Below, piece by piece: positions 22,494 through 28,962 of a stretch of 64,000 nucleotides of DNA (its first letter is position 1; every line of letters starts with the position of its first letter). The DNA is from Myxococcales bacterium (lineage in GTDB: Bacteria; Myxococcota_A; Polyangia; Polyangiales; DASUME01). Both the position numbers and the translations under genes were made by a program. The notes beneath the pieces are model-generated. The model was not told where the DNA came from. It saw only the letters and a list, made by a program, of their open reading frames with translations, and searched no databases. The stretch lies in the NCBI GenBank assembly GCA_047601445.1, contig JASGJH010000001.1, forward strand, positions 6,176,001-6,240,000, in the 5' to 3' direction.

Positions 22494-22637
22494 GCTCCCA
22501 GCGTGCCTTTCCATCCGTGTGTCGCCGTCGTCAGTGCTGCGTACTCGGCGTTCGTCGACGACGTGTCATGCGGGCCCTCGCGCGGCTTCCGCTCTGCAGC
22601 GTGCAGCGCGGAGCCGGCGAACATGGGTAGCTGACTC

Positions 22638-22847
22638 TTACTGGGTCGCCCCCTCCGTGCCCTCGGTGGGCTCCGTGCCTTCCTCCACCGTATCGGTCGC
22701 GGTATCGGTCGCGCTCTCGGCGGCCTGTTGCGCCTGGTCGCCGGCGGCCTCGGCTCCTTCCTGCGCTTGCTCTGCCTTCTTCTTGCAGCCCGCGAACACG
22801 AGGCTGCTCAAGGCCAGTACGACGACGATGCCCAACTTGCTTTGCAT
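22638..22847 (-). CDS. Small acidic low-complexity lipoprotein
   Basis: FAGC lipobox followed by KKK and an A/E/T-rich tail; GGGGAG RBS. Confidence 0.8.
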   Translation of the reverse strand: MQSKLGIVVVLALSSLVFAGCKKKAEQAQEGAEAAGDQAQQAAESATDTATDTVEEGTEPTEGTEGATQ

Positions 22848-23209
22848 TGGATCGATCTCCCCTTGTGCGCTGCGAGCCGGTGCGCTTACTCCACTTCAAA
22901 TCGCTCCACGACGTGGGCCGGGCTCGACAGCGGTGCTCACACTCTAGCCCAAATGCTCCGCCATGCTGCTTGTCGCTACGTGTGCTCGACGGGCTGCCTC
23001 CGGCCTGTCCAAAACGGGAGAGGGTGCGTTCGACGATCACTCCGGGCCTGTCCTCCGTCCCCCGGTGAGACCGCTTACGGCCTGTAAGCAGCGCGCGGCT
23101 CCACGGGCGGTGCCGGGGCCTTGACCCTGACCAGGGAGTCCTCGCACGCCGATTCTTTTTTTGCGGGGCCCCCTTCCCAAAGCGCCCGGGCCGCGTGTTA
23201 ACGGAGGCG

Positions 23210-24934
23210 ATGCGAACTTTCTTCGGGATCTTGAGCCTGCTGGTGGGGGCCCTGTGTTGCCTGCCGCGGGCCCGGGCGGAGGGCCCCCTCCATACCTACG
23301 CGCTGGTGGTCGGCAGTAACCGCGGGGGGGCCGGGCAGGCCCACCTCAGCTTTGCCGAGCATGACGCCGAGCGCATGGCCGAAGTGCTGGTGGAGCTCGG
23401 TCGGACGCCCACCGAGCACGTCCAGCTGCTCAAGCAGCCCAGCGCGCGCGAGCTGGAGCAAGCGCTGGTGGAGCTCGCCAAGCGCGTCCAGGATCACGCT
23501 GGGCAGGGCGAGCGCTCGCAAGTGCTGTTCTACTACTCGGGTCACGCGCGCGCGCGCTCGCTGAGTCTGGATCAGGAAGAGGTCGCCCTCGACACCCTGC
23601 GCAAGGCACTGACGGCGTTGCCGAGCACGTTGACCGTGGTGGTGCTCGATGCCTGCCAAAGCGGAGCCTTCTCGGGCGTGAAGGGCGCGGCGCCTGCGGC
23701 CGATTTCTCATTGAGCTCCGTGAACGACCTGCACAGCCAGGGCATCGCGGTAATGGCCTCCAGCACCGCGGCCGAGTTGAGTCAGGAATCTCCCGAGCTC
23801 GGCTCGAGCTACTTCAGCCACCATCTGGTGGCCGCCCTGCGCGGGGCGGGGGACGGCAACGGCGACGGTCGTGTGTCGCTCGACGAGGCCTATGGCTACG
23901 CGTACCAGCACACGCTTTCGGATACGGCGCGCACGCAGGTCGGCACGCAGCACGCCACGCTCGAGACCGACATTCGCGGCCGCGGTGACGTGCCGCTGAG
24001 CTATCCGGTGGACGCAGACGCACAACTGTCCTTGCCAGCCGAGCTGGAGGGCCGCGTGATGGTCCAGAAGGAAAACCGCGGCGTGGTGATCGCGGAGATC
24101 GTGAAGGCCGCGGGGTCTCCTCTGTCGCTGGCCCTGCCCGCGGGCAAGTACGACGTCGTGGTGCGCAAGGCCAGCGGGCGGGACACGCGGCAATGCTCCG
24201 TGACGCTCGCGCGGGGCGCCACGTACGCGCTCGATCCACGGCAATGCGCCGTGGTGGCGGAGACGGTCGGGGTAGCCAAGGCTGCGGGGACCGACGATTT
24301 CCAGACCTGGGAGGCGCAACGCGAAGCCGAACGCAAGAACTACTACGAGCACTGGTTCTTCGAGGTCGGTGGCGGACTCAACTCCAAGCAGGACGATGAC
24401 TACACGCGCACGCTGGGGCAGTTCCGCTTCGCGGAGGACCTCGGCCAGGCGCGCGTACTCGGCCTCGACACCTCGGCGGGCGTAGGGCTCACGCGGCACC
24501 TGAGCTTGCTTGCGCACTACGACAACAAGATCGAGCGACGCGTCTACACGCGGTCATTGCAGGGGCCGGACAGCGAGTCGCGCGACGAACGCTTCTCCTG
24601 GACCACGCGCGCGGTCTCCCTCGGTCTGCGCGCACGCCTGGCGCTCTCGAAGAAGGAATGGGTGGTGGGCTTTGCGGAGGGCGACGTGGGACTCGGCATC
24701 GCGCGCACCCGGATGGTCGGCACCGGCGTGCACTCCTTCGATCACGACTTCGGTCTGGTGCTGAGGGGCTTGCTCGGCCTGACCTTCGGCGTCGCCGAGT
24801 ACTTCGGCGTGTACTTGGCGGGCGGCTACACGTACGCGCCCGTCACCAGCAACTTGATCGGTCAAACCCACAACGACGGTGGAGTCACCATCGTTACGGG
24901 TGTGCGTGTTCGCGGCATGAAGGGAGCCTGGTGA
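23210..24934 (+). CDS. Exported caspase-family (peptidase C14) protein with PEGA-like linker and C-terminal outer-membrane beta-barrel-like domain
   Basis: Signal peptide ending ARA; ALVVGSN, FYYSGH (His), VLDACQSG (Cys), SQES...SYFSHHL, GDGNGDG.VSL.EAY.Y; LPAGKYDV; amphipathic beta-strand C-terminus; GGAGG RBS. Confidence 0.88.
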   Translation: MRTFFGILSLLVGALCCLPRARAEGPLHTYALVVGSNRGGAGQAHLSFAEHDAERMAEVLVELGRTPTEHVQLLKQPSARELEQALVELAKRVQDHAGQGERSQVLFYYSGHARARSLSLDQEEVALDTLRKALTALPSTLTVVVLDACQSGAFSGVKGAAPAADFSLSSVNDLHSQGIAVMASSTAAELSQESPELGSSYFSHHLVAALRGAGDGNGDGRVSLDEAYGYAYQHTLSDTARTQVGTQHATLETDIRGRGDVPLSYPVDADAQLSLPAELEGRVMVQKENRGVVIAEIVKAAGSPLSLALPAGKYDVVVRKASGRDTRQCSVTLARGATYALDPRQCAVVAETVGVAKAAGTDDFQTWEAQREAERKNYYEHWFFEVGGGLNSKQDDDYTRTLGQFRFAEDLGQARVLGLDTSAGVGLTRHLSLLAHYDNKIERRVYTRSLQGPDSESRDERFSWTTRAVSLGLRARLALSKKEWVVGFAEGDVGLGIARTRMVGTGVHSFDHDFGLVLRGLLGLTFGVAEYFGVYLAGGYTYAPVTSNLIGQTHNDGGVTIVTGVRVRGMKGAW

Positions 24935-26419
24935 TGCGCTCGCGCTTGCTTTTCGGTGTCTTGGGGTTCGCGGTGCTGGGCACGAGCTTCGTGGCTTGCG
25001 ACGACGACAACCTCGTCAACAACCCCTCCTTCGACCTGTGGTGCGGCAACTCGCTGTGCAGCTGGCACACCGATTCGGGTGCCATCGAGCGCGTGGCCAC
25101 CTGGCACAAGAAGGACTACGGCGTCTCCTTCGAGGAGCAGAACACGCAGAATCTCGCAGGTGTCCGAGGTGGACCCCGTGAAGTGCATGCGCTTCGACTT
25201 GATCGCCGATGCGGAGCCCGAGGCGCAGCTCTCGCTGGTGCTGGACTTCAACGACGATGGTTACGAGGAGTTCGATCAGCTGATCCCGGACGTGCGCTGG
25301 AAGAGCCTGCAATTCGTGGTGCGGCCGCCCACGGACTACCGCAGCCTGCGCTACATCCTGCGTAAGAAGGGCAGCGGACGCGCGGTGATCGCGCAGCTGC
25401 GCGTGGTGGAGGAGACCGAGGGCTGCGACGGACCTGCGTTGATGATCGCGGCTGGTGGCGCCTGCACGACGGACCTCTCGTGCGCCAGCGGACTGTGCGC
25501 CGACTTCATCTGCAGCACATGCGCGATCCCGCCCGAAGGGGGGCCAGCCGTCGCCTCGCAGTGCATCGATGGCAGTGCGTGTCGCGAGGACAGCGGGTGC
25601 CAGAGCGGTGCCTGCGTGGGCCGAGTTTGCCAGGGTTGCGCGCTCGACGGCAGCTGCCGGGAGCTCTCTCCCTGCGACGATGCCAGCCAGTGCGCGAGCA
25701 AGGCTTGCGTTCCACGGCTTACGTTCTCAGGCGTGGTGGAAGCTACGTCGTGCTTGCACTGCAACTCGAACGAGGACTGTGGTGGACCCAGCGCCCTCTG
25801 CACCGACGGCGTGTGTGAGGTGTGCCTGCTCGACCCGTTCCCCAAGCAATGCGCCGAATGCACCGACGATGCTCAGTGTTCGTCCGGCGTGTGCGAGGCA
25901 GGTCTCTGCGTGGACTGTCGTTCGGATGAACAGTGCGGCCCCGGCCAGTTTTGCCGCTACGTCAATCCCTTCGACGCCAACCTCCGCCGCTGTTCCGGCG
26001 GGTTCGCGACGAACCTTCCACGGGGAGCCCTGTGCGACACCGACTCTCAGTGCGCCGGTGGGCTCGCTTGTGGCGCTGGAGCCGGCGAGCCCAAACGCTG
26101 CGGTGTGGCCTGCGAGGTCGACCCCAACGTGTGCGCTGCGGGTACCATCTGCACGAGACCGGCTTTCTCCGAGATTCAGGGGATCATCTGGTATCCGCAG
26201 CGCCGACTGGTGGCCCCTTATGCAGACGTCGCTTCGAACATCGCCACCTGCCATCACGTGATCACCGACGCCGAGGCCGCGCAGCTTCCCTGCAGCCTGC
26301 ATGCGGAGTGCGCGAGCGGTGTGTGCTGCGACGGCCACTGCGCCAATCCCGACGACCATCAGAAGAACCTGCGCACGGGTGGCTGCACCTATTCGCCGGA
26401 CCAAGACGATTCGGAGTAA
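24934..26419 (+). CDS. Cys-rich lipoprotein (CBM-like N-domain plus Cys repeats); +1 frameshift at about 25150
   Basis: ATG overlaps the caspase TGA; FVAC lipobox; NNPSFDLWC. Removing one A in CAGAATC (25147-25153) joins it to the Cys-rich frame ending at 26419. Confidence 0.8.
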
Positions 26420-26433
26420 CCTGTGCAGGCCCC

Positions 26434-26907
26434 GTGGAAAGCTATCGACGTTACGGTCCCGCGCTGCTGCGCAAAGCACGCCGCCTGCTGCGCAACGAGG
26501 AAGACGCTCGCGACGCGCTGCAGGGGTTGTTCGTCGACTTTCTCGCGCGCGGAGAGGAGCCGCGTGAGCTCCCCTATTTGTACCGGGCCATCACCCATCG
26601 CTGCCTCAACCTGCTGCGTGACGACCGCAATCGGGCGCGCCTGCTCGAGCGAGAGAGCCCTGTCTTGGCCGGCGCGGCGCAGCTCGCCCCGGACACGGTC
26701 TCGCTCGGGCTCGACGCGTTGCTCAAGCTGCAGCGCTGCGTGGACGAGACCGTGATGGAAACCGTGGTCTACCGCTTCGTGGACGAGATGGGCCTCGAAG
26801 AGATCGCCGAGGTGATGCAGGTCAGCCGCAAGACCGTGCAGAACCGGCTCGCGCGCGCCCAACAGGAGCTTGCGCTCTTGCTCGGCAACACCGGGGGGCA
26901 GACATGA
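26434..26907 (+). CDS. ECF RNA polymerase sigma factor
   Basis: YRRYGPALLRKARRLL...ARDALQ..F (region 2), YLYRAITHRCLNLLR, EEIAEVMQVSRKTVQNRL (region 4 HTH); start uncertain. Confidence 0.9.
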   Translation: MESYRRYGPALLRKARRLLRNEEDARDALQGLFVDFLARGEEPRELPYLYRAITHRCLNLLRDDRNRARLLERESPVLAGAAQLAPDTVSLGLDALLKLQRCVDETVMETVVYRFVDEMGLEEIAEVMQVSRKTVQNRLARAQQELALLLGNTGGQT

Positions 26908-27564
26908 GCCTGTCGGAGCGACGCACTCTCTCGTGGTTCACGCTGGAGCGCTACGCCCTGGGCGAGCTCAGCGAAGCCGAGCGCAATGAAGTGGAGGCGG
27001 AGCTGCAGGGCTCGGCGTTCAACCGACGTCGGCTCGAACAGAATCCTGGCGGACCGCAGTGAGTTGCCCGACCTGCCCACCAACGTGGCTCCTCTCAGGC
27101 CGCAACGGGCACGCAGCGCAGCGCGTTGGTTGGGGGTGGGCGCCACCCTCGCGGCTGCGGCCGTCGCGCTGCTGGTGGTGCTGCGGGACCCGTCGACCCG
27201 CCAGGACGAGCAGGGGGGCAATCACGTGAAGGGCGGCGAGCTGTCCTTCGAGCTGGTGAGCGAGCGGGGGCACCACGATCCCACGCGCTTCGCTCAGCAC
27301 GAGCGCTTCAAGGTCCTCGTGACCTGCCCGCCTGACTTCGCGGAGCGCCTGCACTTGCTGGTGTTCCAGGGGGGGCAGCGCTACGAGCCGCTGGCGCCGA
27401 TCCAGCTCGCGTGCGGCAACCAGGTGCCCTGGTCTGGTGCATTCGCACTCGACGGGGACCAACCCGCGGAAGTGTGCGTGGCGTGGGGCGCGCGGGCCGC
27501 TCGGGCTCAACGTGCCGGGGACCTGTCGGACGACGCGGTGTGCAGCATGCTCGCGCCTGACTGA
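26904..27564 (+). CDS. Membrane anti-sigma-like protein; +1 frameshift at about 27042
   Basis: ATGA overlap with the sigma gene; MSLSERRTLSWFTLERYALGELSEAERNEVEAEL N-terminus. Removing one A in CAGAATC (27039-27045) continues into ILADRSELP, a TM helix, NHVKGG and an exported domain. Confidence 0.8.
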
Positions 27565-27666: not shown

Positions 27667-28962
27667 ATGGCCGTCATCCGTCGCGACGCGTCGCGTTCCA
27701 GGTCACGCGCGCTGCGCTACCGTCCGGCTTCGTCCGGCCAGCTCTTGCGCCACATCCTGGAGCACCCGAGCCTCACGGCTGCCGTGCGCGAGCTGCCAGG
27801 TCCCGCGCTGGCCAACCTGATCGCTCGCGTGGGTCTGGAGGACGCGGGAGAGATCGTGGCAATGGCGAGCGACGAGCAGCTCGCGAGCGTGTTCGACGAA
27901 GATCTGTGGCGCGCGGATGCGCCGGGCGCGGACGAGCGATTTCGACCCGCGCGGTTTGCGCTCTGGCTCGAGGTCCTCTCGGAGGCTGGCGATGAGTTCG
28001 TGGCGCGCAGGCTGGCGGGGCTGCCACGCGAGCTGCTGATCTTGGCGATCCATCGGTTGGTGCTGGTGCTCGACATGGATGGCTTGGCCGAGGAGCTCTG
28101 CGAGGCAGAAGAAGACGACGCGGTCGCCACGGAGAAGGCGCTGGAATGCGGGCTGTACGAGGAGTGGGAAGGGTTCCGCTTGATCGCGCGCGACGCGCGC
28201 GTGTGGGACGTGTTGTGGTCGGCCCTGTTGAGCCTCGACCGTGATCATCACGAACTCTTGCGAGAAGTGCTCGAGCGCTGTGCCGCCATGGACCAGGAGT
28301 ACGTCGAGGACAACGGTGGTCTCTACGATGTACTTACCTCGGAGGAGATGCTCGAGGCTGACGTCTCGGGGGAGCGCGCCGATCGCCGTGCGGAGCACGG
28401 CTTCGTGTCGCCAGCCGATGCGCGAGCGTTCCTGGCGTTGGCACGCAGCGGGCGGGAGCTCGAGCAGCGCGATGCCGTCACACAGGCCTACTTTCGTGGC
28501 CTCTCACGCGCACCGCGCGCGGAGCTGCAGCGTCCGGTGCAAGAGCGCGCTAGCCCCGCCGTCACGGAGCTCTTGCGGCTCGTGGGCCCCAGCGAAGCGT
28601 CCCCTGCACATCCGCTGCTCCCCACGCGGGGAACGAGAACGGAAGAGTCGACGGAGCCGTCCTTGTTTCGGGCGGCGCTGTTGGAGCTCGGGCGAACGCA
28701 GCCACAGCTCGGCGCAGAGCGCCTCGAGGAGCTCGCCTACTTGGCCAACGTGCTTTGGGTAGGAAGCGCGCACACGGGACGTCAGCCGCGGCCCATTGAA
28801 GCCCTCGAACGGGCCATGGAGACGTGCGACGCGGGCTTGCGCAGCGCCCTCGAAAGCGCGGGCGTCGCGAGTGATGAGCAGCCTGCGTTGCTCGACGCGG
28901 CGGTGGCCACGCTGGCGCGCACGCACGCCGATCAGCTCTTTCGAATGGGCGCGCGCGACTAG
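27667..28962 (+). CDS. Hypothetical helical protein (DUF6178-like)
   Basis: GLEDAGEIV...FDEDLW, WLEVL.EAG, RRAEHGFV, RLEELAYLANVL; AAGGAG RBS. Family recalled from motifs only. Confidence 0.75.
   Translation: MAVIRRDASRSRSRALRYRPASSGQLLRHILEHPSLTAAVRELPGPALANLIARVGLEDAGEIVAMASDEQLASVFDEDLWRADAPGADERFRPARFALWLEVLSEAGDEFVARRLAGLPRELLILAIHRLVLVLDMDGLAEELCEAEEDDAVATEKALECGLYEEWEGFRLIARDARVWDVLWSALLSLDRDHHELLREVLERCAAMDQEYVEDNGGLYDVLTSEEMLEADVSGERADRRAEHGFVSPADARAFLALARSGRELEQRDAVTQAYFRGLSRAPRAELQRPVQERASPAVTELLRLVGPSEASPAHPLLPTRGTRTEESTEPSLFRAALLELGRTQPQLGAERLEELAYLANVLWVGSAHTGRQPRPIEALERAMETCDAGLRSALESAGVASDEQPALLDAAVATLARTHADQLFRMGARD

Follow-up and report, generated by a model that had tools for sequence, protein, structure and literature searches.

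The operon described here raises the question of how an anti-sigma factor anchored in the membrane lets go of its ECF sigma factor, and whether a caspase-like protease encoded beside the two makes the releasing cut. Four linked myxobacterial genes on the forward strand were read from the sequence of the window, i.e., the whole 64,000-nucleotide stretch analyzed, and encode a caspase-barrel protein (gene 1, 23210-24934, 574 aa), a lipoprotein (gene 2, 24934-26419, about 494 aa), an ECF sigma factor (gene 3, 26434-26907, GTG start, 157 aa), and a membrane anti-sigma factor (gene 4, 26904-27564, 219 aa). The tight coupling reported in a preliminary description of this DNA was re-found in the sequence, with a TGATG overlap between genes 1 and 2 (24932-24936), a 14-nt gap between genes 2 and 3 (26420-26433), and an ATGA overlap between genes 3 and 4 at 26904.

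In the assembly, a +1 frameshift interrupts both gene 2 (25147-25153) and gene 4 (27039-27045), and both breaks consist of the same extra base in CAGAATC. Neither frameshift had been mentioned in the preliminary description. Of 267 scorable CAGAATC sites in the genome, 56 (21%) precede a +1 frame change, as do 120 of 762 AGAATC sites; the share is 1-4% at eight control motifs and 8% at CAGATTC. The corresponding frames are uninterrupted in all 68 anti-sigma factors and in 72 lipoproteins of the relatives. The two frameshifts are probably a genome-wide assembly error. That this copy is instead decaying, with both frameshifts real, is improbable and would concern the copy rather than the mechanism of the family: both breaks are present in the assembly and the anti-sigma factor also lacks its zinc motif, but the identical extra base, the genome-wide rate against the controls, and the relatives that read through argue otherwise, and the zinc motif is also absent from intact close relatives such as L005, L007, and L009.

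The preliminary description had called for a survey of gene neighborhoods, and the linkage of caspase, ECF sigma, and anti-sigma genes proved to be conserved. Gene order was surveyed on 80 contigs, 12 of which end too early, while the 68 that reach gene 4 were counted. The four-gene order was retained in 66 of these, the exceptions being L034, which lacks the sigma gene, and L060, which lacks the lipoprotein gene. In the wider family, a same-strand sigma gene lies within the fetched stretch for 204 of 225 caspase ORFs, and most members carry the sigma/anti-sigma pair directly upstream of the caspase. Of 301 genomes sampled from the phylum, 118 matched the module, and four copies occur in this genome. 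The operon is real, and the linkage of sigma factors and metacaspases is itself already known (2012, PMC3501461), reported there without a mechanism in the available part of the text. What the present comparison of sequences appears to add is evidence pairing the protease with a substrate. No described mechanism for the module was found in the literature outside subscription journals, nor did that search return work tying the act operon of M. xanthus (ActD) to this module.

Gene 1 encodes an exported clan CD (C14) protease composed of a signal peptide, a caspase domain, an EF-hand-like loop (D215-E226), a beta-rich middle domain, a linker, and a predicted eight-stranded outer-membrane barrel. 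The signal peptide was called by eye and hydropathy from a hydrophobic N-terminus ending in A-R-A, in agreement with the earlier call. Pfam Peptidase_C14 (PF00656) matched residues 30-215 with an E-value of 1.4e-15 and 58.1 bits against a cut-off of 21.4, while the profile for EACC1-associated caspases (NF047832) scored 71.2 bits, under its curated cut-off of 140. The dyad, described earlier as intact, consists of His112 (23543) and Cys149 (23654) and spans 23543-23656 together with the pocket residue Asp147 (23648), and it is invariant in 78 of 78 close homologues. D/E52, H112, D147, C149, and E193 occur together in 228 of 230 family members; the remaining two are truncated. D52, D147, and E193 are the acidic S1 residues expected for Arg/Lys-specific caspase homologues, i.e., an Asp near the N-terminus, an Asp two before the Cys, and an Asp/Glu at the position of caspase Arg341, and the equivalent residues are named as the acidic Arg/Lys pocket in the part of PMC2064784 available. 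By these pocket residues, gene 1 is predicted to encode an Arg/Lys-cleaving caspase homologue. The EF-hand-like loop pattern (D..D..E) occurs in 219 of 230 members.

The AlphaFold (AF2) model of gene 1 reached a mean pLDDT of 84.8, and its caspase domain matched the folds of metacaspase 4 (Z 18.1), MALT1 (Z 17.0), and caspase-7. The beta-strand C-terminus noted earlier was modeled as a barrel of eight long strands within residues 382-569 that aligned to OmpA with a Z of 17.6 and an rmsd of 2.6 over 172 residues; Pfam OMP_b-brl scored under its cut-off on this protein. Residues about 262-346 form a confident beta-rich domain in the model, and the PEGA-like segment of the preliminary description was not recovered, as a whole-protein search gave no Pfam PEGA match up to an E-value of 1.

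Two basic sites in gene 1 may be targets of the enzyme itself. The post-catalytic loop G-V-K158-G159 (23675-23686, family consensus R-x-K-G) is a predicted self-cleavage site, with K158 conserved in 77 and G159 in 78 of 78 close homologues and a loop pLDDT below 50. The linker before the barrel reads K357-A358 in the window (24278-24283), where the family consensus is K/R-G and 72 of 78 close homologues carry K-G; it is a possible, less constrained release site. As a strictly Lys-specific site the linker was ruled out, since 55 Ser200 enzymes from the wider family carry Arg there. Ser200 itself (23807-23809) is placed by motif only, and is likely located in the specificity (S1) pocket; its spacing of seven residues after E193, whereas Ser347 of caspase-1 lies six after Arg341, counts against this placement. 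A PDB sequence search with the single gene 1 protein found nothing, and PDB profile searches returned weak matches of which none covers residue 200, so its position in S1 is not confirmable by alignment.

The lipoprotein of gene 2 carries a lipobox Cys22, a CBM-like jelly roll, and Cys-rich repeats, with 49 Cys in the copy of the window. Its N-domain, modeled on the intact relative L005 with a pLDDT of 92.9, aligned with CBM16 as a jelly roll (Z 14.8, rmsd 2.6 over 132 residues), while Pfam gave scattered weak matches only across the lipoproteins. The CBM-like domain and the many Cys of the preliminary description are thus borne out, the modeled jelly-roll fold being one whose sharing shows no function. 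The proposal that the lipoprotein is a ligand or cargo of the caspase found no support here. One of the 68 close loci (L060) dispenses with gene 2, most of the wider family places the sigma/anti-sigma pair directly before the caspase, and an R-x-K-G site was found in only 2 of 72 lipoproteins.

Gene 3 is an ECF sigma factor as first described, passing the cut-off of TIGR02937 (sigma70-ECF) and matching Pfam Sigma70_r2 and r4_2, with sigma2 and sigma4 only and a short length common to most of the relatives shown. The anti-sigma factor of gene 4 comprises a cytoplasmic domain, a single TM at residues 75-93, a stalk, and a DUF4384-like ectodomain of about 110 aa, in line with the one TM and exported domain reported before. 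Its HxxxCxxC zinc (ZAS) motif is missing, while 61 of 68 relatives have it. None of the 68 members matched Pfam DUF4384 (PF14326), and Atlas structure neighbors carry DUF4384 at TM 0.63-0.68, which is under the Atlas naming bar. The predicted site-1 cut, K109-G110 (27229-27234), lies sixteen residues beyond the TM and immediately ahead of the ectodomain's first strand, and is kept in 68 of 69 close homologues. The stalk is variable, with a median length of 17 residues, while the P1' Gly is found in 167 of 180.

Upstream of the caspase gene, a predicted ECF-type promoter, TTCCCA-N16-(C)GTGTTAA (23174-23201, forward strand), was found de novo. The motif was matched in 70 of 79 relatives and, with a matrix trained without this site, it is the best match in the whole 9.5-Mb genome with 26.7 bits. 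It is probably read by the sigma factor of the operon itself. No regulon outside the operon is established: searched with the strict pattern, 13 genomes yielded 4 matches away from the operon against 6 in the control, and in this genome 4 hits of at least 19 bits stood against 1 in the control, the second-best hit overall lying inside a coding region.

The pairing of protease and substrate is drawn partly from a motif, R-x-K-G, that is common to the anti-sigma stalk and the post-catalytic loop of the caspase. Stalk and loop share a consensus of P3 Arg (108 and 153 of 180, respectively), an aliphatic P2, Lys, and Gly. Among 207 pairs, Ser200 in the caspase was accompanied by a stalk Lys in 180 of 180, while the 27 pairs with Gly or Ala at this position, which fall into 10 clades, had Lys in 14 stalks, Arg in 11, and a degenerate stalk in 2; L137 first appeared as Arg through misalignment and was rescored by hand as Lys in the pair table. 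With the loci chosen for their pattern set aside, the counts become 180/0 against 13/5. On the tree, which was built with FastTree only, all 7 independent events in which the stalk lost its Lys (5 to Arg, 2 degenerate) fall in Gly/Ala clades that make up 14% of tree length, for which simple arithmetic on that share gives 0.14^7 or about 1e-6. Among 92 conserved columns, residue 200 alone changed in all 7 events. An Arg in the post-catalytic loop occurs only with Gly/Ala200 (13 of 13). One locus, L226, combines an Arg loop and Gly200 with a Lys stalk, which counts against the pairing. In a distant subfamily examined afterwards, all 30 enzymes carry Gly200, and the stalks have Arg in 21 and Lys in 1, with 8 stalks not found (Arg in 21 of 22 scored); being a single clade, it adds one contrast.

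The symmetric independent-pairs test was not significant, with 3.5 pairs running the same way, 0 the opposite way, and a median p of 0.125-0.25. Clade structure contributes to the co-variation, since other anti-sigma columns also differ between the groups (0.3-0.4, against 0.52 for K109). From the sequences we infer that the stalk residue is read by the S1 pocket of the caspase, where Ser200 would restrict it to Lys and Gly/Ala200 would admit Arg. The earlier proposal that the caspase is the site-1 protease and the stalk K-G its cut site thereby gains support of a comparative kind, from the conserved linkage, the pocket residues, and the co-variation of residue 200 with the stalk.

Because residue 200 and the Lys/Arg of the anti-sigma factor change together, a cut at this place in the inhibitor is likely the way in which the protease turns the sigma factor on. 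The reading preferred here, with a probability of roughly 0.7, is that the periplasm-facing caspase cuts the anti-sigma factor at K109|G110, RseP follows, and the sigma factor fires TTCCCA-N16-GTGTTAA before the operon. The operon would then form a self-amplifying envelope switch, in which a caspase held on an outer-membrane barrel cuts the stalk after Lys109 and frees the ECF sigma factor. The features pointing to it in sequence and models are the exported C14 domain with its intact dyad and acidic pocket, the barrel anchor, and the single-pass anti-sigma factor with K-G sixteen residues outside. Self-cleavage in the R-x-K158-G loop, perhaps while calcium occupies the EF-hand-like loop, would mature the enzyme, which may in addition detach itself from the barrel at the linker. 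The DdvA system suggests by analogy that a stalk without its ectodomain would leave the TM open to RseP, and the genome encodes M50 peptidases, one of which has the long insert that an RseP should show. The conserved promoter motif suggests that the sigma factor would transcribe its own operon and so raise the amounts of protease and lipoprotein. As the trigger, one may guess at damage to the envelope or at a glycan that the lipoprotein binds.

The same residues could be recognized without being an inducible on-switch. The cut may be a constitutive priming step, or the stalk may occupy the pocket without being cut, serving as an inhibitor or tether, while the signal acts elsewhere; the co-variation speaks to recognition and not to timing or outcome, the Lys stands just before the first ectodomain strand, and autoproteolysis is reported for the ectodomain of another anti-sigma factor, RsgI. 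This is unlikely yet the most serious of the rivals, as every complete member retains the dyad and a conserved P1' Gly in an otherwise variable stalk suits a scissile bond. That the caspase serves solely as an output of the sigma factor and acts on other envelope proteins, the stalk K-G being structural or cut by an unrelated trypsin-like protease, has a small chance of being correct. The promoter precedes the caspase gene, which makes the caspase an output in any case, a K-G ahead of a beta strand could be structural, and the pair test was not significant, but such a role leaves unexplained why a stalk Arg occurs only with Gly/Ala200 (none of 180 with Ser200, 11 of 27 with Gly/Ala200, and 21 of 22 for the distant subfamily).

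Least probable is a caspase domain displayed on or released from the cell surface, in predation or biofilm, that never meets the anti-sigma factor. A signal peptide with a C-terminal barrel resembles the autotransporter layout and the K/R-G linker could release the domain, but the barrel was modeled with 8 strands and matches OmpA, and barrels of the OmpA type have a periplasmic N-terminus and a pore too narrow for a passenger. With cutting by the periplasm-facing caspase preferred over these alternatives, a wider generalization is a closer call and only just favored: a widespread myxobacterial signaling family in which an outer-membrane-anchored caspase would be the site-1 protease of its own anti-sigma factor, and in which its specificity could be read from sequence at a single residue (Ser200 admitting Lys only, Gly200 admitting Arg as well). 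The shared loop motif would then unify activation, barrel release, and anti-sigma cutting as a periplasmic caspase cascade. If true, the family offers a named substrate and bond (K109|G110), as well as a candidate for the specificity residue (Ser200) and a promoter for reporter use.

Bacterial caspase homologues are usually discussed as cell-death proteases, and to our knowledge their natural substrates are mostly unknown. In the regulated intramembrane proteolysis of DegS/RseA/RseP, a periplasmic site-1 cut is followed by RseP and sigma release, and the same order of steps is proposed here by analogy. Site-1 proteases include inner-membrane serine or metallo-proteases, signal peptidase, and Prc; the literature searched yielded none of caspase fold that is anchored in the outer membrane and encoded within the operon itself. 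Metacaspases, MALT1, and orthocaspases share the caspase fold, the His-Cys dyad, and the acidic Arg/Lys pocket (PMC2064784, PMC6426788, as far as their available parts go), whereas the gene 1 protein is exported, fused to a barrel, equipped with an EF-hand-like loop, and predicted to be Lys-selective through Ser200.

Operons that resemble this one by description were reported by Asplund-Samuelsson et al. 2012 (PMC3501461), who placed a caspase homologue and a sigma factor in one operon, with four such operons in M. xanthus DK1622 and further linkage in Anaeromyxobacter, Haliangium, Sorangium, Ralstonia, and Fibrobacter. The excerpted text of that paper names no anti-sigma factor, barrel, cut site, or promoter, and its discussion leans to cell death. 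The anti-sigma factors of ECF25 (Casas-Pastor et al. 2021, PMC7826278) carry a zinc domain and/or DUF4384, with members in Deltaproteobacteria, Fibrobacteres, and Spirochaetes; compared by description only, the available account of the conserved ECF25 context names no caspase. The DdvS/DdvA system of M. xanthus (PMC11506125, in part) shares the ECF sigma factor and the single-pass anti-sigma factor, and there a periplasmic clan CD domain was proposed as the site-1 protease acting on the stalk and RseP was shown to remove truncated DdvA. In DdvA, however, a TPR-CHAT unit lies within the anti-sigma factor and cleavage was not observed, whereas here the C14 protease is encoded apart, on a predicted outer-membrane barrel, and the anti-sigma factor has a small DUF4384-like ectodomain. 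If the proposed cut is correct, this operon would fill in the site-1 step, which eluded demonstration in DdvA.

The four-gene cassette is real and conserved. The window sequence holds all four genes at the positions of the preliminary description, with the overlaps it claimed: a caspase-like protease (23210-24934), a lipoprotein (24934-26419), an ECF sigma factor (26434-26907; profile searches agree) and an anti-sigma factor (26904-27564). The caspase, 574 aa, is an exported C14 protease with an intact His112/Cys149 dyad. Its model (mean pLDDT 84.8; structural match to metacaspase 4, Z 18.1) shows a caspase domain followed by a middle domain rich in beta structure, and then an 8-stranded barrel matching OmpA (Z 17.6), in line with the predicted beta-stranded C-terminus. 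The PEGA-like segment was not upheld, as Pfam gives no PEGA. An EF-hand-like loop, present in 219/230 caspases, suggests calcium control. The CBM-like first domain of the lipoprotein was modelled in an intact relative (locus L005) as a CBM16-like jelly roll. The anti-sigma is single-pass, as described; its ectodomain has no Pfam match and has structural neighbours containing DUF4384.

An acidic lipoprotein-like small ORF of ~85 aa (22590-22847, minus) diverges from the operon, and a DUF6178 family gene (27667-28962, same strand) lies shortly downstream beyond an AT-rich gap. A Cys-rich long repeat protein with units of ~30 residues occurs at G000:C1:3842602-3844098 in the source genome; the operon lipoprotein gave no tblastn match to it.

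Scoring of 8000 candidates in a protein search yielded 1204 homologues. In the best 80 genome loci, gene 4 was reached in 68, and 66 of these carry all four genes in the same order, as the proposed caspase/ECF/anti-sigma linkage implies; the two exceptions are L060, which has no lipoprotein gene, and L034, which has no sigma gene. At L034:7669-8663 the sigma gene and the anti-sigma cytoplasmic domain are gone, and a hydrophobic leader, K-G motif and ectodomain are retained downstream of the caspase and a short lipoprotein. Matches occurred in 118 genomes of a 301-genome sample of the phylum; the wider set covers 140 of 150 places among the matches listed, beyond which 89 more exist. Among the 225 caspase ORFs of all loci to that point, the sigma precedes the caspase in 119, follows it in 85 and is absent from the stretch in 21. 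The source genome has four sigma/anti-sigma/caspase loci, the additional ones being L001:6476-10183 (minus) and L002:6630-9720 (minus), both of Lys type, and L003:5319-8670, of Gly200/Arg type. The L003 caspase has a helical, hydrophobic C-terminal region replacing the barrel. A fifth caspase-like gene (L004:5566-7500, minus), apparently fragmented over several frames, has a repeat region and barrel-like end; a search for a sigma neighbour found none.

Genes 2 and 4 each contain one extra base, both at CAGAATC (25147 and 27039), and the relatives' copies read through without frameshift. Genome-wide, codon-frame scoring found a +1 shift at 56/267 scorable CAGAATC sites (317 more were unscorable). 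The rate was 1-4% across eight control motifs, and CAGATTC reached 8%. Both frameshifts are taken, from these patterns, as probable systematic assembly errors near GATC. AGAATC/GATTCT sites also show excess +1 changes (120/762 scorable), so further apparent pseudogenes at the motif could be artefacts of this assembly. Methylation-linked long-read error is our guess at the source, and Dam-family methylase genes were found in the genome.

A motif search found TTCCCA-N16-(C)GTGT(T/C)A(A/T) upstream of the caspase gene in 70/79 relatives, and the copy at 23174-23201 is the top match genome-wide. Off-operon matches were not above the pattern control, and the operon itself is supported as the motif's output; we infer that its own sigma reads it. 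Extra copies lie shortly upstream of predicted lipoprotein genes (G000:C1:6705190, minus; L053:7291; L255; L257), encoding a small Pro-rich lipoprotein, a VWA-like one and two others.

K109-G110 of the anti-sigma, found in 68/69 close homologues, ends a variable stalk of median length 17 residues. K158-G159 of the caspase lies nine residues past the catalytic Cys in 77/78 close homologues, and a further K-G precedes the barrel in 72/78. In caspases generally, maturation takes place in the loop that follows the catalytic Cys; here that loop shares R-x-K-G with the anti-sigma stalk. D52, D147 and E193 are the counterparts of the acidic pocket residues of Arg/Lys-specific caspase homologues (PMC2064784).

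Further loci, picked by caspase-loop pattern alone, brought the set to 230 caspases and 207 caspase/anti-sigma pairs (L137 stalk rescored by hand). Ser200 caspases pair with a Lys stalk in 180/180 cases; of the stalks paired with Gly/Ala200 caspases, 14 carry Lys, 11 carry Arg and 2 are degenerate. A FastTree tree built after masking the positions under test places Gly/Ala200 in 10 clades, and all 7 independent non-Lys stalk events fall within these clades, which make up 14% of tree length; among 92 conserved columns, residue 200 alone changes in all 7. At L051 the stalk, loop and barrel linker have all switched to Arg together. A distant paralogue in the source genome combines Gly200 with an Arg stalk and served as a fresh query; 30 loci of the 57 matches listed were obtained, with Gly200 in 30/30 and stalk Arg in 21, Lys in 1 and not found in 8. 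The single locus with a Lys stalk, L285, also carries Lys in the loop and the barrel linker. One Arg-type clade (L233, L236, L245-L248) carries Asp52 to Glu, Glu189 to Ser and Gln192 to Arg, a wider remodelling of the active-site area. The rule is one-way: Arg is permitted by Gly200, not required. Residue 200 presumably aligns with caspase-1 Ser347 when anchored on the following Phe. Counted from E193, it sits one residue off. Ser347 is a P1-pocket residue (PMC6438033).

Several observations temper this co-variation. The tree-kit pair test gave 3.5 pairs in the same direction and 0 opposite (median p 0.125-0.25). L226 pairs an Arg-type loop with Lys in the stalk, and 55 Ser200 enzymes have Arg in the barrel linker, counter to a strict rule at that site. 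Anti-sigma columns other than K109 likewise differ between the Ser200 and Gly/Ala200 groups. One Arg-type clade (L233, L236, L245-L248) carries Asp52 to Glu, Glu189 to Ser and Gln192 to Arg, a wider remodelling of the active-site area.

We consider the caspase to be the site-1 protease of the anti-sigma, with a probability of roughly 70%. The caspase domain most likely faces the periplasm, on the basis of OmpA-type topology. It would mature at K158 and then cut the anti-sigma at K109|G110, and RseP may complete the processing by analogy with truncated DdvA, on which its action has been shown (PMC11506125). M50 peptidases were found in the genome.

Sigma-metacaspase linkage is already described in PMC3501461, the available portion of which gives no mechanism, and a literature search outside subscription journals found none described for the caspase/sigma/anti-sigma cassette. 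DdvA is the closest mechanistic precedent.
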